A stretch of DNA of 61,688 bases, counting the filler, from Globobulimina sp. (lineage: Eukaryota), in NCBI GenBank assembly GCA_003354225.1. It is 21 parts of 21 records of this genome, joined end to end, with 100 filler letters (N's around TTAATTAATTAA, not from the genome) between each part and the next. Parts side by side here need not be neighbours in the genome. Positions count along the whole stretch, not along the records: positions 35,322 to 38,163 come from PIVH01004661.1; 20 more parts are not named here. The stretch is one strand, 5' to 3'. The position numbers were made by a program, and so were the translations under genes. Positions 2,946 to 57,828 of this stretch are shown here, one piece after another (the first letter of the stretch is position 1; each line of letters begins with the position of its first letter). Under the pieces are notes generated by a model, which worked only from the letters and a program-made list of their open reading frames with translations, was not told where the DNA came from and made no database searches.

Positions 2946-5482
2946 TCATTAAAAAGAAATGAAATAGAAACAATATGCAATGACAACTATTCAGACTTTA
3001 TCTCATCCATTGATGAATTATTAGGCGTACAGTTATCTGTAAATGAACTACAAAACAAAATACATTCATTAAATGGGGAGATCCAAGCAAATGGCAACAA
3101 TCTACAACAAAAAATCTCCAATCTATTAATACTAAAACAAACCCGAAGGAATATGGACATTACCATCAACAAATTGAATCGTTTAAAATATATATTATTA
3201 TTAATGGATAAAATCCGTGATATGATGCATAAAAAAAAATATATCTCAGCCCTCAAAAACTTAAATCAATTGACATCGCATCATTTGATACAATTACAGG
3301 AATACTCCGTCACGCGGAAAATATGGGATTCTGTGCATATGACAATGGAGAAGATCACAAAACAGGTCGACAGCAATTTTGATGAATGGATACATGGCAT
3401 AAATAAACAGGGGAATACATTAGGTATTACTCACTCGATTAACATACAAACAAAACTCACTGCAATACTCACAAAAAATAATCAGGAAAATTAGCGTTCG
3501 AACAAACGAAAAAATACATTCAAAGCCTTCAAGAAAAAGAAGAAAATGACAATGAAAACGAACAAAACGACGTTAAATTGTTTGGCTTATTTATCACTGA
3601 CGAAAACGAAGAAAAATCCAAAGCCATTATCTCCACCGCTGAGCAAGAAAAGGATATCGATTTTGGAGGAACATTGTTTGAGAAAATCGAAAATCTGGAC
3701 TTCAACGCCATTTATCAATGCATTCACATCCATGAAACTTTGGGCAGCATCGACCAATTTGTGACTCGTTACAGCGACTTACGCAAAAGAACGCGATTAA
3801 AGATCTTGAACGAAAGCTTAATTCGCATGGACGGCGACGGCAAAAAGAAGAAAAAGCGGCGAAAATCGAAGAATAAAACTATTATAAACAATGATTTTTT
3901 CTACAATTTGTGCGGTTTTTATGTGATTCAACATGCGGTGTCCAGCCGCTATCAGCAGCTCATGAATACGGAGCAGGTTCAGACAGAATGGGATCAAAGC
4001 TGTAAAACGTTGACTTTGCGCATCAAAACAGAGTTGTTGTCCACTTGCAAGTTACCGAACGAATTGATATCGATTAAAAATAATGTGTTTATATTAAGCA
4101 AAGCGATGACGAATTATGATTTCAATCGAAATCATATCATCTCTTTCTTGGAAGAGCTACGCATTCAATTTGAGCAGCGCTTAATTGTGGTGTTGGGGAA
4201 AAATGTGAAAAGCATATTATTGAAGGACAAATTCCTTCCCTTCACAGTGCAGAATATCCAGGATTTTGAGTGTATCGAGGCGTATAACTTAGATGTGGCG
4301 ATACAGGATAACAACGAGCGGAGTCCACAGCATATGGGCACTATCCGCGAGGAGGATGATGATAAGGACGATATATATTACGAAGAGTCGGACTTCCCCA
4401 AAGTTGTACCGTTTTCTGTGTCTGTGCCGATGATCTGTGGCTATTTGGACGATTTTATTACATATTATGAGAATTATAGTCAATATTTATCTGATATGGG
4501 TCCTCATATTCGACAGTCGGTGGAATCTGCGATAAAAAACGTGATTTGTCAGCAGCTGAGACACGTGATCTCGGCGAGTAAGCACGAAAACGTGCAGCAA
4601 GCTCAAGTTGGCAATGCGCAGCAAGCACAAATAAGTAATACTGCAGCTGGCATGAACAGGAAGTTAGAGATTGGAGAGTTAGCGCAGTTAGCTGTGAATG
4701 CAGCGTATTTGGAAAAAAGTTGCAAGTTTTTCGAGCGGGAGTTGGCCACTGAAGATCAGATCAATTATACGGATAACAATAAGAAGGATAAGTTAGTGAT
4801 TGTGGATGATGGATCGGAGCTGATTCAGATACCAAAGATGCACGAAGCCCGCGATGCGTTGAAGTCGGTGATGAGTCAATGTGTGGACGCTTTGTTTGAG
4901 AGATTGGGTATTTGTGTGGAGAATATATTGAATAAATACATGTGTAGAATCAATTGGTGTGCTGACAAAATCAACAATAATATCCATGAATGGGTGTATA
5001 AATTGCTTGAGTTTCTGGACAATGTGTTGAAGAATAAAATAAAATATTTGCCGGAACAGTATCGGGATTCGGCGTATTTTATCACAATGGTTCGGATTAA
5101 GCAGTTTATAACGACGTTGTTTACGCAGAGAGAGATGGATAACGGCATTAAGAGATGGAATATTATCTCAATGTATAATTTTAATTTGGATATAACTCGG
5201 TTGGAGACGTATTCGCGACAGACTTTGGTGCCGGATTTGTATCAGATCTTTAAGTCATTGCGGCAGTTATTGGATTTGCTGTTGTCTGGGAAGGAGATTT
5301 TGTTGTATTTGAATGAGGAAATTCGAATGGAAAAGTATGGCATTGTGGAGACGCATCACGTCCGAACTATGTTGGAAAAATATAAGACATTGGGATTCCT
5401 GAATAAATTACCAAAACATATTAAGGATTTAAATAAGAAGACTGTACAACAAATGTTGAAAAATTTAAAGGATATGGATTGA
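2946..5482 (+). CDS. EXOC6: Exocyst subunit Sec15/EXOC6, 5'-partial; intron 3424-3485
   Basis: IETICNDNYSDFISSIDELL and DFNAIYQCIHIHETLG motifs. Removing the GT-AG intron joins the ORFs as NTLG|KLAFEQT. Confidence 0.88.
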
Positions 5483-6010: not shown

Positions 6011-7774
6011 ATGGCCGAGCCTATTGAAGCATGGCTAGCATGGACAATTTATGGATTGATCGTTTTAATAGTAATTGCATTTTCCGTCTGGTTTGTAACC
6101 TATTACAAATTACGTGGCGAGCCAGCCGGGGTCACAGTCGTAGTGGGATTCACTTCCATATTATTTGCATTATTATCCTTATTTTTAATCCCCATCGATG
6201 TCTACATGTGTCCTGAATACGGCGGGGATAATGATTACAGAGACACTGCCAAATTTGTATATTATGGCTTTTACTCCATATTTTTATTTTGTTTGTTCGT
6301 TGCCATACCATTTGGATATTTTTATTACGAAGAATTAGGTGATTTGCAAGATAAATCCAACACATTCACCCAAAAAGCATGCAACGCACTCAAATATGCC
6401 GGAATCACAGCCGTGTTATGGCTCACTTTAATCATAATCGGTTTATTTGTCAGCTTCAATTCCTCCGCATCAGACTCAGGAAATAACGAATGGACACACA
6501 AAATTGCAGACTCTTTCAGCTCCAATGTAGATGGCATAATGCCATTTTGTATCGCAGTCGTGACTGGAATCGGTATGTTCTTCAGTATGGTGTACACAGC
6601 CTATGGTTTATCAGCATTCCCCATCTCATTGTTCCAACCTATCATTACTCCGCCAGAGGAAGACCCCGTTCATATTCAAGTTGAATTAAAACGTGTGTCT
6701 ACAGACTTAGATATGTTATATACGAAGTATCGAGGACACGACACCTGGCCTCCACAGGAAAAAGCAAAGCGACATGAATTGGAAAAGAAGAAAAAGTTCA
6801 GTACTTTTTGTTTTTTGTTAATTTCTGTTCGAAAATGCGCAGTATACTGATATTAATATATATATTGACACTTGCAAAGGGTGTTAACCATAAAAAAAGA
6901 GAGAGCTGATTCGAATTTAAGCAATGGAGACTATCCGAGGGAGACTTGTTGTGAAAAGGCGGGGCGTTGTTTTTGGAACTCTGCCGCTCCGATTCGCTAT
7001 GTGTTGGGGATTAGTTTGGAAGGTTTTAGTCTTTTATTGATTGTGTCCATATTGATGCATATTATTGATCAGGGAGTGAATAGTTCGTGTGGCTTAAAGT
7101 GTGGTTTTGCATTGAATGACCCTAAGATTTCTAAATATGATCCGGTGAGTTGGATATTAACTGCCTCTGCGAGCTATTTCCCATTGGATTATGTAGTGTT
7201 TACGGCGGTGTTATTTTGGTTGTTTTATTGCACAATTTATGGCATTGTGCGGATTGATGTGCGGTTTTTGTGTTTTAAGTTGTTTTCATTGCGGCCGCAT
7301 GAGACTATGCATAATGCGTTGTTGATGGCCATTGGATTCTTGTTGTTGATATTAACTTCGTTTAATTATTTGATGTATACTTTGGCTTCGCAGTATATTA
7401 CATTTGGTGACCAAGTATGTGTGTACTTTTGTGGCAAATATGATAATATTTTTGATAAAAATAGGGAAACGACTGTTCGATAATATGTGCTGAGACGGAT
7501 ACACATTGTGTGGAGTGTGAAGGGTCTGAAATATATTATTTATTGTCTGGAATATTAATCGGAATGCCTGTGTTTGGATTGGTATATTTCGTATTCAGTG
7601 GTGTTTTTGTGTTGGTTTTCTTTGTATCTTTGGTTTATAATTTATATAAAAAACCAAAAAAAAAGAATCTATTATTACGAAAACGCAGTGGTATGCTTCT
7701 ATGGTATATATATTATTAATCGTAGACATTGTTTTTTTTTTACAGATGATTTGGAGGCAATATTTAGAGATTGA
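6011..7774 (+). CDS. LMBRD1: LMBR1-family multi-pass membrane protein (LMBRD1-like lysosomal cobalamin exporter); introns 6796-6879, 7415-7464, 7691-7745
   Basis: LFLIPIDVY, IPFGYFYYEE, YTAYGLSAFP, FPLDY and QYITFGDQ motifs; three GT-AG introns restore one frame. Confidence 0.85.
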
Positions 7775-8835: not shown

Positions 8836-10382
8836 GATCGATTACAGACTGATTTATGGACGTTTGAATGGATGTGGTTCTTTAAGATTTGTGACAAAGT
8901 TATCCAAACAAAAGAAAATCAACAAATTAATATTGATGACTGGGTGGGATATATGATGGTTGTGGTTGAACATCGCCCGGATGGTATTTTTAATAAATTA
9001 GAAGCAGTCAAACAATATAAAGCTGCAAATGGCATTTATTATAAACATATAAAGTTTACGCAGATTGAATGTAAAATAATATCGCTTGCAATTTCGACAC
9101 AAAATGAATTGATTAACAAAAATATTAAAAATTTCTTGTGTGATGCGTGCGGTCAGAGGATGAAAAATGTTCGGTTGAATTGTACAGAATGTGCAGATTT
9201 TGATTTATGTGGTGATTGTAAAGAGTTTGAGAATGATAAACATAAAAAAGAGCATGGGATGAAAGAATACGATATTAAGGATTATATGCAGTGCGATATA
9301 AATGAATTATCGTCAAATGTTATTGAATTAAGAACAGAAATTCTCGAATTGGATGGTTGCACTGCTTGGGATTACGATGAATTAATGAAATTAGTCGAGA
9401 AGAAAGCAGCAACTGTGATATTAGAAAAGGGATTGAATAAGTTCCCAAACAATGCGTTACTGCGACAACATCAAGTTATCAATGTCCTGCAAACGAATGA
9501 CTTTGTCGGTGCGTGTAAGCTAATCAGTGATGGGGAAGGTATGTCAGCAGAGGTGGTTAGTAATGTATATCAGGCATTAATTGGTGTCAGTGCCGATGCA
9601 GCTTTTCATATATTATGTGTTGGTGTTGATAGATTTAAAAATGACACCATTTTATTATATAATCAAGCCGAAGGATATGGAAATAGGCAAAAATATTTAG
9701 AGGCTATTGAGGTATGTATATGATCTATTTTTTGTTATACTGTTTCTTTTTAATAGTTTCATATTACGGTAAGGTTGGTTTGCATTTAATTGATTGCTAT
9801 AAACAAAATGAAATTGGTGAAAAAGCGAGAGCTTATATATTGATTGCTAAATATCATGCAAATTTAGGACAATTTAACGATGCAATTAGTTTATTTGATA
9901 AATGTATGCAACTCACTCAAAACAGCCAAATACAGCTTGCAATACAATGCAACCAAACAGCAAAAGAATATATTGTTAAATGTAATGAATTAAAAAAAGA
10001 AAATGCAAACAAAACCATTGTGCCAAATTATTATTGTGATGCATGTAGTAAAAAAATTGAAAATATAAGGTATAATTGTAAGGAATGTGCAGATTTTGAT
10101 TTATGTGGTAATTGTAAAGAAAATGGATTTGAAAATGAAGCACATAAAAATAATCATAAAATGGAAAAATTTGGCGATGAAAATAAAAATGAAAATGAAG
10201 AAAAGCAGCAACAACAACAAGGTGCATATTATTCGTGTGATGGTTGTAATAATAAAATTGACTCAAAACGATATCATTGTAATCAATGTGAAGATTTTGA
10301 TTTATGTATTGGTTGTAAAGAAAACGATTTTCAAAATGATGCACATAAAAAAGAACATAATATGCAAGAAATCAGTGTGTAA
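8836..10382 (+). CDS. Protein with three ZZ-type zinc fingers and TPR repeats, 5'-partial; intron 9712-9773
   Basis: Three CDxC...RYxCxxCxDFDLCxxC...H...H motifs; TPR ARAYILIAKYHANLGQFNDAISLFDKC. Confidence 0.85.
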
Positions 10383-14722: not shown

Positions 14723-17566
14723 AAATCGCTGATAATACCTTCAAATAATATTAAATCTTGAGATAAAAACTTGGGTACATTGGCATCACACAAAGCACGC
14801 AGTAATATTAACTCTTCATCTTTATTTGGAAACTTCTTCTTCAAATTGCCAGCTTGCACAATCACCGATTTTACTGCTCGCATACCATAATCATAGTGAT
14901 CTTGCGACGATAACTGCTCTGAGCATAAAGTAAAGGTCGCCACCATTTTCTTAGATAACGGCTCAGCTCTATTAAAACCATACGAATATAACATGATCTC
15001 CGCAATCAATGCGTAATCGGGCACCATCATCGCAACGGGGCGGAATAACGCGACTAAGTTGTCAGGCAATTCTGTACGCCCCGCATAGCCTGGATTCATT
15101 GTAATAAATGTGCAGCAGGTTGGATTTAATGAGATCTCCGTTTCTTCGAAAATAAAGGATTTCTTTTTAGCTTTGATCGCGTTCCATATCGATGATATTT
15201 GCTGGGCCACAACGGACAAAACCTCAATGTCAATACGATTAAACTCATCAAAACAGGCCCAGGCTCCGCTCATAGCTAAGCCTTTGAAAAACTTGGCCAT
15301 CGCTAAATGGTCCAAACTATCCGAACAGTTAAACACCACACATTGTTTAGCAACATTTTTCGCCAAATCCTTGACTGTTTCAGTCTTACCAGTCCCGGCT
15401 GGCCCTGCTGGTGCACCGCCTAAATGTAATTGCAATGCGCCCATTAACGTCATATAACAGCGCTCAGTCAGCGGTGTGATCACTAATCGGAATGAGTTGC
15501 CTTGATATTCATAGCCATATGGAAAGGCTGCTTGCACCATTTTTACAATGATCACATCTTCTTTGCTTAATACGGAGGCTTCTTCCTCCTCCTTTTCCTC
15601 TTTCGAAGGGGTTTCTAAGTAGTATCTCAATTGGGAGACCCACATGAAATCATTGATGGAATCTACATTCTCGCCGACCATGTTTTTAACTGTATTTAAA
15701 TTATGCACATCCAATACAATTAAAGCACCCACATTTATTCGCACCAATTTGTCTAATTTACCTCGAACCATTTCAACCGTTTTATCCATATCAGCTTGCA
15801 TTCGCTCTCGGTATTTGCAAATACCTTTATTGCCTTCACTAAGTAACGCATGCTCCACTTCCTTAGTCCAGGCCACCTGCGACATGGTTAGGACACATTG
15901 ACCGTAGGTCCGCTTGACCCATTCTGTCCGCTTGGTGGATTTATCAAAATAATCTCTATATGACTTGTTTAATTGCGTTTGCAACGACATTTGCATCATA
16001 TTCTCAACCTGTTCTAACCAGCACTCAACCTGTGATTGGGTGGGATCTATGGCCTCATTAAAGGGGAATTCTTCGCCGGAGGTGGAATACATGGCAGTGA
16101 TTTGCAAATTGTCATCGAATTTTAGTTTTTTTATCGACTCAAAACATTTTTTAATGTGCGGTTGTACGGCTTTTACATCTTTGGTTTGCGATAATATTTG
16201 CAATAATTCATCGTCAGATAAGAAATAAAACCTTGCAAAGGCAACACGTTTTGTATTCAAATAATCCGATAATGCTTTCTGTACTTGATCTAAAACGCGA
16301 GTGGCATCTCTAAATTTTAATAGCAACGCATCATTATCGGCAAATATCAAGACATTTGCATTTTTTTTACAATTTTCCATCGTTTGCCTCCAAAATCTGT
16401 CCACACCGTTAAATTTCTTGCCTTCCACAGGTAATTGTTTCATAATATCTGCAGAATCGAATATAGGTTGTAAGTGTAACCAATTCCGTTGCACCATTAA
16501 CCATTCATCGATCACCTCCGATATTAATGATAATTTTGCGTCCCAACATTTTATTCGATCTTCGAATGGTCCCTTAAAAGCACTGAATTGCATAGCTTGC
16601 GTAGTCACGCGATGCTCATCCAATTGCTGCATAATGTCATCCACTTCTAATAAGCGATACGTTTTAGTCTTTTTGTATGGATCCACTGTAAACCGTACCC
16701 CTTTCCATTCATCTTCCATTTTATCCAAAGCTTTTTCAATTTGGAATTCCTTGGCGGCTTTCTCGCCTTCTTTGATAATAATAGTTATATTTTCTTTACA
16801 ATCCAATTCTATGTCTAATGCTTTCTGCAAATTGAAATCTTTATCATTAAATACATCCAATTCAATATATAATTTATTGGATAATGTGTTCCAATGTCTA
16901 TCCCTCATTCCTTCATTGGCCAAACTAGTAATAATTGGCATTTGTGGTTTAAATCTCTCAATTTTAGCAAATATATCTTGTGCTACACCGCTGACCCCGG
17001 TGTTATTTTTAATATGCTGCGAACGCAAACATTTATTGACAGATCGTCGATAAACTTCGACATCTTTCTCAATTTTATAGGGATCAATGGACAAAAATGA
17101 TTCATTCATACATTTATAATAGGTTTTATTCCATGAATCAGCACTGGACCATAACGATAAAAATGGATCAAATTTCTTTTGTTCTTGTCCGATCTCTTTG
17201 TACTCAGTTAATTCCACTTCAAAAGCGGCCTCTTTATTATTAAAAACAACCGCTTCTGCTTGTAAATGTTGTAATTTTTGATGCAAATTCCTGGCTTTAA
17301 TGGCAATTTTGGTGGTTTGGGTGACATCCGTTAATTGATTAAATTCGTCAATTTCCTGTTTTGCATCTTCAAAATCAGCCGAAAACTGAGCTTGTTGTTC
17401 TTTTAATTGTTGATAATATTTTTTCTTATCATCGGTCATATTTGTATTCACTTTCAATATTTCATCATTAATTGTTTTGGCACGGCCAAAGGTTTGCCAT
17501 TTTAAGCGGAAATCATTGGCATCTAAGTTATGATTAAATTCTTCCAATAAATCAAAATATTCTATG
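14723..17566 (-). CDS. Axonemal dynein heavy chain (inner-arm type), linker + AAA1 fragment
   Basis: RLVITPLTERCY, GPAGTGKTETVKDL, CFDEFNRI, MNPGYAGRTELPDN and LSSQDHYDYGMRAVKSV. Confidence 0.97.
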
Positions 17567-35321: not shown

Positions 35322-36155
35322 CACCGCTTTGTTGTTTTCTTTCGGCGAAACCCGAATTCTCAGCGGTCGTCAAATCGAATTTGCCCTGTGTGTCCTATAC
35401 AAAATACAGTAATATACACACAAATCGAAAAAATTGTACAATAAACGAACTTACTCTGTAAATGAAGTAACCGAAATCGTTTCGGTCCTTGAACTCCTTG
35501 CTGCTTTTGAACACATTTTCCAAGTAAGACAAGTATGGGTACAAGTCGTGAGAGCCTGTTATTTGGGTACTGTTGCCCAATGTTACGACCACGCGAGAAA
35601 AAAGACTGCCACCTGAAACGAATGTCACATTTCAAGATCGACAAACAAGACACTTTTTTAAGTACATACCCAAATTCGCGGCCGGAGCGGCGTTCGTAGC
35701 TCCCAGAGGTGTGCCGTCTCCGTTCAACACTTGACAATGTATCACGAGTCTGATGGAAGAAGGGTCCAAAAATCTTTCCGAATCTCCGCTGAAATTTCGA
35801 TTTTAAATCAGAATATTTTTTGCCGCCCTGTGCGGTGGAGTGGGCCCAAGAGGGTGTTGTCCCGAATACATAAAACAAGTACAAATAATAAAATACTTAC
35901 TGTATAATGAACACTGTTTCACCCCCTTCTTGCAGTGTACCTATAAGCAATTTGGTCAGTTTTCGACTTTAAAAAACTTCACCCTTCTCTTCTTTACTTA
36001 CCCTGCGGCAAAATTCTCTCGGTAGTATAGTTTTGAAACTGCACTTGCAGTCCTTTTCTGTTGAACAAATCGACTTCCGGCAAATTAACGACAGGTTGAA
36101 CATCTACAGAAGTACTAGTGCCGGCTATATGAGTTTTTCTTTTTTTGGGAGGCAT
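35322..36155 (-). CDS. Polinton major capsid protein (double jelly-roll), N-terminal part. Exons 36155-36002, 35940-35901, 35788-35670, 35612-35455, 35394-35322
   Basis: Spliced product MPPKKRK...PEVDLFNRKGLQVQFQNYTTERILPQG|TLQEGGETVFIIH|GDSERFLDPSSIRLVIHCQVLNGDGT...APAANLG|GSLFSRVVVTLG...LYPYLSYLENVF...YR|DTQGKFD...NSGFAERK follows the Polinton MCP pattern ELDLF...IEF.I.G....YLD...PVN...SLFSQV...YPYRAY.E...YKDTAG..D...N.GF..R. Confidence 0.88.
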
Positions 36156-36178
36156 TTTTTTGACGAATGATAAATAAA

Positions 36179-36604
36179 TTATTTAAATTTGCGCAAAAGT
36201 TTTACAACTTGAGAAACAAGTTTCGTATTATTAATAGGTTTTCGTTTTCGACCGACTGTTTTTCCGCCGGTTCGCTTCTTCAAATTGCGTTTTTGGCCAC
36301 CTTTCACGACCTTTTTTCGTCCGGCTTTTTTTGATTGTTTTTGACCACCCGTTTTCTTATTTTTCTTCTTTTTGACGACTTTTTTGCGACGAAAACGTGG
36401 GAATTTGATAGTTTTCAACGCGCGTTCACGTCGTTTTCTTGGAGGTTTGACTCTGGCCAAAGGTCCAGCCGAAACGGGACTTTCGAAACCGTGATGATAT
36501 TGAAACAAGGGATTTTTTATTTTCTCAGAAGGGTTACGAGACAAAATGTTTTCAAATTTTTTCACAAAATTACTCTGAACAGCACCACCGACGCAAGAAG
36601 ACAT
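36179..36604 (-). CDS. Highly basic Lys/Arg-rich protein, candidate virion DNA-condensing core protein
   Basis: Lies between the minor and major capsid genes; K/R-rich with repeated xGG motifs. Confidence 0.6.
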   Translation of the reverse strand: MSSCVGGAVQSNFVKKFENILSRNPSEKIKNPLFQYHHGFESPVSAGPLARVKPPRKRRERALKTIKFPRFRRKKVVKKKKNKKTGGQKQSKKAGRKKVVKGGQKRNLKKRTGGKTVGRKRKPINNTKLVSQVVKLLRKFK

Positions 36605-36646
36605 TAGTATCAATAATAATAAATAAACAACAGTACATAACTTTTT

Positions 36647-37438
36647 TTACACAAACAACGACAGAGGTTGACGTTTAATCAATAATTCGATGACGCAAGA
36701 GGCGTGATTCATAAATTTTGGCAAAGTTTTAAAGTCGGAGCAGACCACTTGAAAGGTCACGTGACTAAAGCTGTCTGCGGCCACGAGCTTGGACCACCTT
36801 AATGGTGAGTCATAGGTGAAGGTAATTTTTCGGCCGAAAAGGGTCTGCTCGCTATTAAAATCGATAATGTTTAAAATTGGCAAGGGTCCAGCGGGAGTGG
36901 GACATCGATTAACCAAATCGCAAAGCAAGTACATGGGGGTGTAAAACAAATACATGTCGGGCAATCTTTCGGCCGTCGAAGATCTATCGTATACTATATT
37001 ATGATCAAAACCGAGCAATGCGGCTAATTTGGGGGAAAATTTGACCTCGGTCTCTGGTGTTAATTCCATTTCCACTCTTCTGGCCTGATTTTCTTCGGGA
37101 ATTGTCAGTCTGATATCATGAGGCGCTTTTTCGTTTATATTGGTCAACAAGCAATTGATAACATCGCACTGTTCTGTATCGCAAGTAATTTGATCATCAA
37201 AATCTTCGTCTCCGTTCAAATTGTATTGCAAATAACAGTCTTCGTCTACAGTAGGAAAGGACAAGTCCATACATACACTTCGGGCAGTGATCAAATAATT
37301 GTAACCAGGTTTCACAAAAGTACAAGCCGAGTCAAGATAAGCGGTAAAAGAGGCGTTAGTTCGCCACTTTTCCATGTCCTTTTCGTTGCTAACAAAAAGA
37401 GTAAAACTGTCAGAATCATTCGCCATCAGTGCTGTCAT
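36647..37438 (-). CDS. Polinton minor capsid protein (penton, single jelly-roll)
   Basis: SFTLFVSN...NASFTAYL, LAALLGF, MYLLCDLV...PILNII, FSHVTFQV and IELLIKR match the Polinton penton pattern; overlaps the integrase stop. Confidence 0.75.
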   Translation of the reverse strand: MTALMANDSDSFTLFVSNEKDMEKWRTNASFTAYLDSACTFVKPGYNYLITARSVCMDLSFPTVDEDCYLQYNLNGDEDFDDQITCDTEQCDVINCLLTNINEKAPHDIRLTIPEENQARRVEMELTPETEVKFSPKLAALLGFDHNIVYDRSSTAERLPDMYLFYTPMYLLCDLVNRCPTPAGPLPILNIIDFNSEQTLFGRKITFTYDSPLRWSKLVAADSFSHVTFQVVCSDFKTLPKFMNHASCVIELLIKRQPLSLFV

Positions 37439-38133
37439 CGGTGTTCAATCTTTCGGGAAACGAGGATTTCAATTTCAAATATTCACTCTCGTTCAACCAA
37501 CGAGTATAGTTACGATTATGTCCGACAAAATTGACCAAATATTCGTTTTGACCAGACTTCGATTGACGTTTGTCTAGGGTACGATCGACGATTCTCCAAT
37601 TTTCGAAATCTGGTTCGGCTTCGAGCAAATTTTCGGGTCTAAAGTATCCCTGAACAGTTCGACCGTCGGAATCGGTCAATCTATAAGTGGGTGGATAAGT
37701 GTCCCTTATTTCGGATACAATAAACGTTTCTTGACTGAACCCCGGCTTGCTTCTTTTCAAAAAACTGTTTTTGTCCGGAATACTAATTCTCACAAAGGTG
37801 GAAACGGGAAATAGGGGTCGATTAAGGTCCTTTGTTTTTTGATCAAAAAATTTGGAATATTTTCTTCGGTAAACGAGTCCCGCGTTCTCCAATTGTCCGC
37901 TTTCGGTAGGATGCAATTCGGTCAATATAGAAGGGGTAGAGTTGACACTGTTCACGATGCGTGACAGCGCTTTGGACAGGTCCGGTTTTCTGTTCAGATA
38001 TGTCGAGTGGCGATTCAATTTGCCTCGAATCGTGGCGATACTCTTCTCGGCCAAGAAGCTCTTTTGATCGGGGTTTTCGGTTGTCTGATGTTTGCCGATC
38101 GGCAAAGTCTTGAACAGTTTGAATTCGTTTCCT
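37416..38133 (-). CDS. Polinton-type retroviral-like integrase, C-terminal part with chromodomain
   Basis: GNEF...KSFLAEKSIATIR (DDE Glu), VNSVNST, FVRIS...F.K...PGFSQETFIV...PPTYRLTD...GYF..ENL, and chromodomain YLVNFVGH...RW. Confidence 0.9.
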
Positions 38134-38263
38134 CTGAAATAAATGAATTTTAATTTTAAAAAANNNNNNNNNNNNNNNNNNNNNNNNNNNNNNNNNNNNN
38201 NNNNNNNTTAATTAATTAANNNNNNNNNNNNNNNNNNNNNNNNNNNNNNNNNNNNNNNNNNNN

Positions 38264-56394: not shown

Positions 56395-57828
56395 ATGTGG
56401 CAACTTGACACACCAAAAGTAGCTGAAACGAATGCATCTCTAACTGGATTATGTTTCTTTTTGGTATTCTGTGGCTGGTCAGCAATGTCAAACATAGCCA
56501 CGTCAACCAGAGGAAACACAGGATCTTATTCTTTATCCATTGTCTACTTCACATTGACTGTGGCTAATTTAATTACAGCTAAATTAATATCAAGATATCA
56601 ACCAAAATATATCATGTTGTTTGGCTCACTTTCCTATGGACTGTGTGTTGCATCGAATATTGCTCCAATTCCGATCATACTGTATATCATGTCATTCTTT
56701 GTCGGTGTTGGAGCTGCTGCAATTTGGGTAGCACAGCAATTATATATTACTCAATGTTCAAATTATTATGAAAAACAGAATAATTTGGAACTCAATTCAA
56801 AATTGGGCTATTTCAATGGCTTATTTTATATGATTTATTCATTTAAGAAGATAATTGGGAATTTTATTGGTGCTTTTACAGTGCAAATAGGATTTAGTTT
56901 AGCTGTCATGTATGCAATATTGACTGCATTGTGTTTTATTGGCAGTCTCGGATTTTTGTTATTAAAACCTATGAATGTTGATACTATCAATCATCATATG
57001 ATACAAAATAAAGAAGAAGTTGTCAATTTGTTAGAGTCGGAGTCTGAGTCTCCCAATGAAACTGAAACAATTTCGCACACAGAAATACTTTCTGATTCCG
57101 GAAAAACTAAAACATCACAATTTGAATTGCTGGATAATGAAAACATAGAACTGACATTATCACAAAGTATTTGTAAGATATTTGAATTATGGAAAAATAG
57201 AAATCTTTGGAGCTTGGTGCCTTTTACTTTATATTGCGGAATGGATTCTGCTTTTGGTATGATTTTATTTTATTTTTTAGATTTCCGATAATAAAAATAA
57301 TAATAAATATATGCGCATGCAGTAAATGGAGTGTTTCCATTATTTTGCAGAGAAAGAACAGAATATAAATTCTATATTATTTCGTACAGTGGATTAGTTT
57401 TGTGCATATTCTCAATGATTACCGGTAAATTGTCGGATAAAATAGGTAGGATTTCAATAATATTAATATCTGCATGTTGTCAATCACTTGTTTATATTTG
57501 GTCGATTCGAACAGATTTTAAAGATGCTAACTATACTGAGAATATTTGGTATTTACTGGGATTAAGTACATTGATTGGAATCTCAGGATCGGGATATTTA
57601 ACTCAGATATCAGCTGTTTATCCCATTATATTGGGAAAGAAACCAGAAGTATTTGCGAATTTGAAATTATTTCAAAGCTTAACAATGGCGAGTTCATTCT
57701 ATATGGAAACAAAATTAAATATTGATGTGATAGCTAAAATAAATTTATTAATGTTGGTGATAGGGCTCATGCCATTGATTATAGACTCCTCTGTCAGAAC
57801 TAAATTGCAAAAGACCGCAGGGAAATGA
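56395..57828 (+). CDS. UNC-93-like MFS membrane protein; intron 57257-57322
   Basis: GSYSLSIVY, FFVGVGAAAIWVAQQLYIT, IIGNFIG, GKLSDKIGR, FANLKLFQS. Confidence 0.85.

Follow-up and report, generated by a model that had tools for sequence, protein, structure and literature searches.

The window analysed here comprises 61,688 nucleotides of the Globobulimina sp. assembly GCA_003354225.1 and is made up of 21 unrelated contigs, sorted by size (2,840-2,845 bp) and linked by spacers of the form N44+TTAATTAATTAA+N44. The element under study, at positions 35322-38163, is exactly one entire contig (PIVH01004661.1) of 2,842 bp with a GC content of 0.406. All four of its genes (integrase, penton, basic protein and capsid gene, in that order) lie on the minus strand, and the contig is a real, divergent member of the known Polinton/Maverick/adintovirus kind. 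The penton gene overlaps the 3' end of the integrase gene by 23 nt, 42 nt separate the penton from the basic protein, and 23 nt separate the basic protein from the capsid gene. Frames are unbroken in all four genes as far as the contig extends, so the co-orientation, tight spacing and open frames described in the initial annotation hold. Its description of the block as intact holds for the openness of the frames throughout the contig but not for the outer genes, since the integrase (first) and the capsid gene (last) are both cut by contig ends. No tRNA or Rfam families were found on the contig, and a repeat search returned trivial repeats only, with both contig ends falling inside genes.

A metagenome-contig scan with a four-row penton alignment returned a sole related locus, PJEL010031851.1 (3,819 bp; hereafter L001). 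The penton used as a single protein found no related loci in viral_contigs or metagenome_contigs, and the L001 integrase and L001 capsid exon found none in viral_contigs. L001 encodes an integrase-like open reading frame (ORF) of 320 amino acids at 365-1327, a penton at 1318-2103, a basic protein of 130 amino acids at 2105-2497 and a capsid-type gene from 2494 onward with three introns of 49-53 nt. The order integrase-penton-basic protein-capsid gene is therefore that of the studied contig, at 29-44% protein identity. L001 differs in having no chromodomain, in a capsid protein without a start resembling a nuclear-localisation signal, and in its introns, none of the three being common to the five of the contig. 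According to its authors, the record set that contains L001 consists of contigs placed neither with the bacteria nor in the draft genome of the foraminifer (PMC6783311). A 73-amino-acid ORF with an apparent 57-nt GTATAT..TTTAG intron and no family match lies on the other strand (1-310, minus), upstream of the L001 integrase; it could be another element or cargo gene.

The penton gene (36647-37438, minus strand) encodes a protein of 263 amino acids that matched no Pfam or NCBIfam family. A HMMER search of all 1.84 billion representatives recovered only 12 relatives at E <=0.001, six of them at E <=1e-10, and the best is 41% identical; the six clusters inspected have 1-4 members, situated on contigs no longer than 5.7 kb, and are named 'hypothetical protein' only. 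Identity to the L001 penton is 32-33%. An AlphaFold2 (AF2) model built from a 10-sequence alignment has a mean value of 85 in the predicted local distance difference test (pLDDT) and a predicted template modelling score (pTM) of 0.79. Foldseek aligns this model with the mavirus penton 6g41 (E 2.3e-10, template modelling score (TM) 0.52), the Sputnik penton 3j26_N (E 5.5e-8) and a long series of adenovirus penton bases. The pentons of mavirus (6g41/6g42) and Sputnik are the best solved-structure matches, at a sequence identity of only 10-12%. Virophages depend on giant viruses, and we know of no spliceosomal introns in them. In BFVD the best match is protein M4QZG2 of Tetraselmis viridis virus S1, a Polinton-like virus of algae (E 1.9e-12, TM 0.60), yet it is only 11% identical; further matches include the mavirus minor capsid protein, adomavirus LO5, adintovirus proteins and giant-virus minor capsid proteins. 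The protein is a single jelly-roll penton, the vertex protein of the capsid, as its predicted fold confirms.

The last exon of the putative rve-type integrase (37416-38133, minus strand; stop TGA at 37416-37418) aligns with the C-terminal half of the L001 integrase-like ORF at 43% identity, starting at residue G146. It is preceded by the last 29 nt of an intron (38135-38163, minus strand), whose acceptor TTTATTTCAG ends at 38134, and the L001 integrase homology begins exactly after it. The L001 ORF itself resembles the families rve (E 0.25), IS481 (E 0.0026) and IS30 (E 0.028) only weakly, in each case below cut-off, and the integrase fragment of the contig found no homologues in the word-index search at longer lengths. 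The exon appears to be laid out as a helix with a conserved AE motif, an SH3-like region and, at the C-terminus, a chromodomain (37467-37592, minus strand). The protein runs 64 residues past the L001 stop, and this extension is probably the chromodomain: all 17 PDB sequence matches of the fragment, at residues ~164-219, are chromo or chromo-barrel domains (weak, E 0.0065-1.1), as are 12 of the 14 profile matches, the other two being glucanases at E ~0.5. The scores for Pfam Chromo, MSL3_chromo-like and Tudor-knot, at E 0.02-0.1, do not reach the cut-off. A two-sequence AF2 model of the integrase is poor (pLDDT 48), although residues 180-224 form three strands plus a helix at pLDDT 56-79, and a wide fold search with this model returned generic SH3/Tudor barrels only (Z up to 4.8, none >=5).

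An integrase of this type would insert a linear double-stranded DNA genome into the host, and its chromodomain would steer insertion towards marked chromatin, as others have suggested for chromoviruses and adintoviruses. A chromodomain is reported in adintovirus integrases, and the same paper cites chromodomain-bearing integrases as typical of chromoviruses (PMC8502044). The contig could on that account be read as a Ty3/gypsy chromovirus followed by unrelated ORFs, with no virus module at all. This reading is scarcely credible: it is contradicted by the penton fold of the gene that overlaps the integrase stop, the four-gene order recurs in L001, and no long terminal repeat follows the integrase.

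Downstream of the penton, the basic protein of 141 amino acids (36179-36604, minus strand) has a lysine plus arginine content of 33% and a pI of 12.0, and matched no Pfam or NCBIfam family. A homologous ORF occupies the same place in L001, with 29% identity over 111 residues (E 2e-15 without composition correction). From its composition and position it is probably a DNA-condensing core protein, and at a pI of 12 it would condense DNA in the manner of the adenoviral core protein. The two basic proteins also have a conserved non-basic N-terminal part (36560-36604, minus strand; L001 2105-2190) of the form ..GG/QG-A-xV..FV(K/R)K(F/Y)..L..NPLFQ/SPFFQ; by analogy with adenovirus core proteins the G-A step could be a maturation-protease site, which is pure speculation. 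Just upstream of the ATGs of the capsid gene and the basic protein lies a 29-nt direct repeat of 72% identity (36150-36178 and 36599-36627), reading TTTATTTAT(C/T)ATT..ATG on the gene strand. L001 has no room for such a repeat, which could represent a start-region or promoter-like motif common to the two genes, or nothing more than an AT-rich spacer.

The last gene begins at ATG 36155 and is probably a double jelly-roll major capsid gene, to judge from its sequence and setting. It is divided into five exons on the minus strand. Exon 1 (36002-36155), which starts with MPPKKRK, is followed by intron 1 (35941-36001; 61 nt, GTAAGT...TTATAG, phase 1), exon 2 (35901-35940), intron 2 (35789-35900; 112 nt, GTAAGT...TTTCAG, phase 2), exon 3 (35670-35788), intron 3 (35613-35669; 57 nt, GTATGT...TTTCAG, phase 1), exon 4 (35455-35612), intron 4 (35395-35454; 60 nt, GTAAGT...GTATAG, phase 0) and exon 5 (35322-35394), which is cut by the contig end. 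The spliced piece gives 181 stop-free amino acids; over 169 residues it aligns with the spliced product of L001 at 44% identity (E 1e-49), interrupted by just two gaps of one residue each. The L001 gene is at least 390 amino acids long and still incomplete.

The capsid exons matched no Pfam or NCBIfam family. The L001 capsid exon had 0 matches in the PDB sequence search, and in the word-index search it found only itself and one 86% relative, while exon 4 of the contig found nothing there. Among ESM Atlas neighbours, the third exon of the L001 capsid gene lies close (0.94-0.97) to clusters with DJR-like_dom (24% of members) and Capsid_N (74%) and to a Preplasmiviricota cluster. The only named Atlas neighbours of exon 4 are all capsid families, namely Sputnik_MCP_1st/Capsid_N (0.92), Capsid_N (0.89) and DJR-like_dom (0.88). 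The neighbour clusters of the capsid pieces are mostly from Arthropoda and Mollusca, which serves as a lead only. The capsid identity is supported by these neighbours, by the location of the gene directly after those for the penton and the core-like protein, by how long its L001 homologue is and by the 44% identity between the two.

Together with the penton, the capsid protein would build an adenovirus-like icosahedral shell in the nucleus. The MPPKKRK start (36135-36155, minus strand) lies within a 13-residue extension that is absent from the L001 homologue, and it resembles a classical monopartite nuclear-localisation signal; it would fit nuclear assembly. The penton fold, the gene order kept in L001 and the capsid-like Atlas neighbours all bear out the initial annotation in seeing here a Polinton virion module.

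All five introns of the contig are validated by homology, because L001 reads straight through each site: its ORF continues through the integrase intron site, and the L001 protein alignment is unbroken across the four capsid introns, which fall after codons 51.3, 64.7, 104.3 and 157.0. The complete introns are 57-112 nt long and run GT..AG. Capsid-gene donors are GTAAGT in three cases and GTATGT in one, and three of the five acceptors (one of them in the integrase gene) are TTTCAG, the other two TATAG. The strong GTAAGT donors and TTTCAG acceptors that had been noted earlier are thus found at three of four and three of five sites. The 544 nt of capsid coding sequence are interrupted four times, a density of ~7 introns per kb. 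L001 has short introns of a similar type, with donors GTAAGT, GTAATG and GTAATT and acceptors TTTCAG (twice) and CTTTAG. Short introns with TTTCAG-type acceptors are also the consensus in Caenorhabditis hosts.

The most interesting open point is that no intron position is common to the two sister elements. The L001 introns in the shared part correspond to capsid codons ~90 and ~168 of the contig, where the alignment is unbroken too. There are in consequence seven intron sites in the aligned regions (five of the contig and two of L001), none of them common to both, and an eighth, in L001, lies beyond the contig end. Comparison of 21 intron pairs showed no sequence likeness (best z 2.8), so the introns are not copies of one introner. 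The overlapping or nearly abutting genes, combined with introns, point to nuclear RNA polymerase II transcripts processed by splicing, from which the tightly packed genes would be expressed. It is possible, though we hold it only tentatively, that the contig and L001 belong to a little-sampled lineage of Maverick/adintovirus-like elements in which the core virion and integrase genes gain or lose spliceosomal introns quickly while their frames stay open. If so, this would imply either long germline residence under continued selection on the capsid gene or a virus that depends on host splicing.

The introns could also be the expression strategy of a free or episomal adintovirus-like virus genome that is not integrated. 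In keeping with this, the genes are compact and overlapping with all frames open, and the contig, which shows no host flank, is seen at low depth, as two sequence variants, in a single sequencing run (X1). We nevertheless consider a free virus improbable: integration is what one would expect of an integrase that probably carries a chromatin-reading domain, and introns that are wholly different between two related elements are expected of genomic residents rather than of a conserved viral splicing programme. The contig ends fall inside genes, so the termini that such a genome would have are not seen. As for the reads, sequence words of the contig occur in X1 (share 0.83) and next to none occur in two further runs of the same sample, which without a control is uninformative on origin. 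Read depth is ~2-11 in X1 and nil in X2 and X3, and without a control contig this says nothing on origin or expression; likewise no RNA run is listed with the contig's words, again without a control and uninformative on expression. X1 also shows eight single-base variants in 35354-36832 at a depth of 2-5 (three synonymous, three non-synonymous and two intronic), which suggests two alleles or copies, or errors, the variants being too few and shallow to read.

The other 20 contigs of the window have a different character. A Pfam scan took in 52 of the 124 stop-to-stop ORFs (>=90 amino acids) on the contigs, and 27 of the 52 matched families at E <=1e-4, nearly all ordinary eukaryote families and none viral; they include CYFIP, dynein heavy chain, Sec15, LMBR1, Rpn8-type MPN, UPF1, kinase, CAP-Gly and UNC-93. 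The CYFIP (948 codons) and dynein (947 codons) ORFs are uninterrupted, in contrast to the dense introns of the studied contig. These two ORFs fill whole contigs (1-2845 and 14723-17566), and their GC contents at third codon positions are 0.71 and 0.38, so this measure varies widely among genes of one organism. GC content alone is not unusual in the studied contig either, since conserved foraminifer-like genes reach 0.47-0.48.

Splice signals were contrasted by listing every frame-compatible GT..AG pair at 15 adjacent same-strand ORF junctions on the other contigs, each assumed, not proven, to be a single intron. On that footing a GTAAGT donor is possible at one of the 15 junctions and a TTTCAG acceptor at none, which differs from the contig at Fisher p 0.016 for GTAAGT donors and 0.009 for TTTCAG acceptors. 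Probable foraminifer-like introns were also picked out by eye at 3424-3487, 6786-6880, 9715-9756 and 57227-57300 (Sec15, LMBR1, a ZZ-finger gene and UNC-93). Their donors, GTATTA, GTATGT, GTATGA and GTTCAG, agree with the weaker donors that the initial annotation had ascribed to the other contigs; their acceptors are not TTTCAG, and the Sec15 intron is A/C-rich, not T-rich, before the AG.

The make-up of the contig also departs from that of its neighbours. Averaged over the other 20 contigs, its dinucleotide distance (delta*) comes to 0.201, whereas each of those contigs averages 0.071-0.135 to its peers (z 6.4), and the nearest sequence to it by dinucleotide signature is L001, at a delta* of 0.109. 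AA/TT is raised relative to the others (1.38 vs 1.12), and AT (0.77 vs 1.12), CA/TG (0.96 vs 1.28) and GC (0.83 vs 1.27) are lowered. Relative synonymous codon usage of the contig correlates at 0.79 with L001 and at 0.45 with 14 pooled foraminifer-like ORFs, and that of L001 with the pooled ORFs at 0.21; all 14 foraminifer-like ORFs are closer to each other in codon usage than to the contig.

The short animal-style introns and a make-up unlike that of the foraminifer-like contigs indicate that the contig probably comes from another organism in the sample. A host other than the foraminifer is accordingly the reading that we lean towards. Our best explanation, which we hold with moderate confidence, is a piece of a divergent Maverick/Polinton/adintovirus-type element in an intron-rich eukaryote that is not a foraminifer, most likely a small animal sampled alongside. 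A small animal is the best guess because of the dense short GTAAGT/TTTCAG introns, the arthropod and mollusc Atlas neighbours and the probable chromodomain of the integrase, a feature reported for adintoviruses. The initial annotation had proposed a different host in the sample, such as a small animal, or horizontal acquisition, and had named TTTCAG as the typical nematode acceptor; four independent contrasts, in dinucleotide signature, codon usage, splice signals and intron density, favour this suggestion, although a nematode in particular is not shown.

The main competitor is an element that sits in the genome of the foraminifer itself. It could have arrived there recently, by horizontal acquisition or fresh endogenisation, and have yet to adopt the host's make-up, or it could be one of several Polinton lineages resident in that genome. 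The contig does belong to a foraminifer-like assembly whose other contigs carry ordinary eukaryote families, and L001 likewise comes from foraminifer-associated data. We regard this origin as unlikely, if the least so of the alternatives, because composition, codon usage and splice signals match L001 and not the 20 neighbours, and because the intron density is far above that of the neighbouring foraminifer-like genes. The five introns peculiar to its lineage speak for an element that has long resided in a host rich in introns and not for a recent arrival, and L001 was not binned with the foraminifer genome in its authors' account of the record set.

Several points weigh against our best explanation. 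Besides the filing of the contig with a foraminifer-like assembly and the foraminifer-associated source of L001, the make-up of a virus or mobile element may depart from that of the host in which it lives. The short-intron style with TTTCAG and GTAAGT is not unique to animals, and the 15 junctions used for contrast are taken to be single introns. The capsid gene is identified by position and language-model neighbours, with Pfam, PDB sequence and word searches blank, and no family is significantly matched by the integrase fragment itself, whose AF2 model failed. Finally, polymerase, ATPase and protease are absent from the 2.8-kb contig, as are terminal repeats and a host flank, and it therefore demonstrates neither integration nor the host.

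Polintons or Mavericks are described as elements of 15-20 kb that encode a protein-primed polymerase, an rve integrase, a protease, an ATPase and a pair of capsid proteins and have terminal repeats (PMC5718144, PMC10748475). Of these features the contig firmly shows only the penton, while its integrase and capsid gene appear by sequence to fit. Adintoviruses and animal Mavericks, as presented by Starrett et al. 2021 (PMC8502044), have integrases with a predicted chromodomain, which the contig probably has too, and they resemble it in possessing a penton gene and, given the probable identity of its last gene, a hexon-like capsid gene. The penton model also matches adintovirus and adomavirus LO5 proteins, and the Atlas capsid neighbours include animal clusters. 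Unlike them, the contig has spliceosomal introns in its integrase and capsid genes, and its sequence similarity to them is very low. The Mavericks of Caenorhabditis have an integrase and major and minor capsid genes, for each of which the contig has at least a probable counterpart, but their core genes are characterised in that preprint as 'intronless', with introns in cargo genes only (Widen et al., bioRxiv 10.1101/2022.07.12.499685), whereas the core genes of the contig carry five.

A literature search on foraminifer Polintons and on Polinton spliceosomal introns found no description of such elements. In the original Polinton paper, that of Kapitonov and Jurka in 2006, introns are reportedly drawn in the genes of some elements. 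The word 'intron' does not occur in Krupovic et al. 2014, and for endogenous viruses of protists a methods section states that 'they do not contain introns' (PMC10120064). Introners have been described inside eupolintoviral elements of dinoflagellates (PMC12166617).

The contig adds a very divergent lineage of penton, core protein and capsid to the Polinton/Maverick/adintovirus kind. It should be flagged as probably not foraminiferal before the assembly is used to support claims of host-virus association or gene transfer. Its core virion genes carry host-type introns, though two well-known surveys treat such genes as intron-free, and elements of this sort are therefore likely to be under-counted; if introns do turn over as rapidly in this lineage as the comparison with L001 may suggest, surveys that rely on intron-blind gene callers would miss them.

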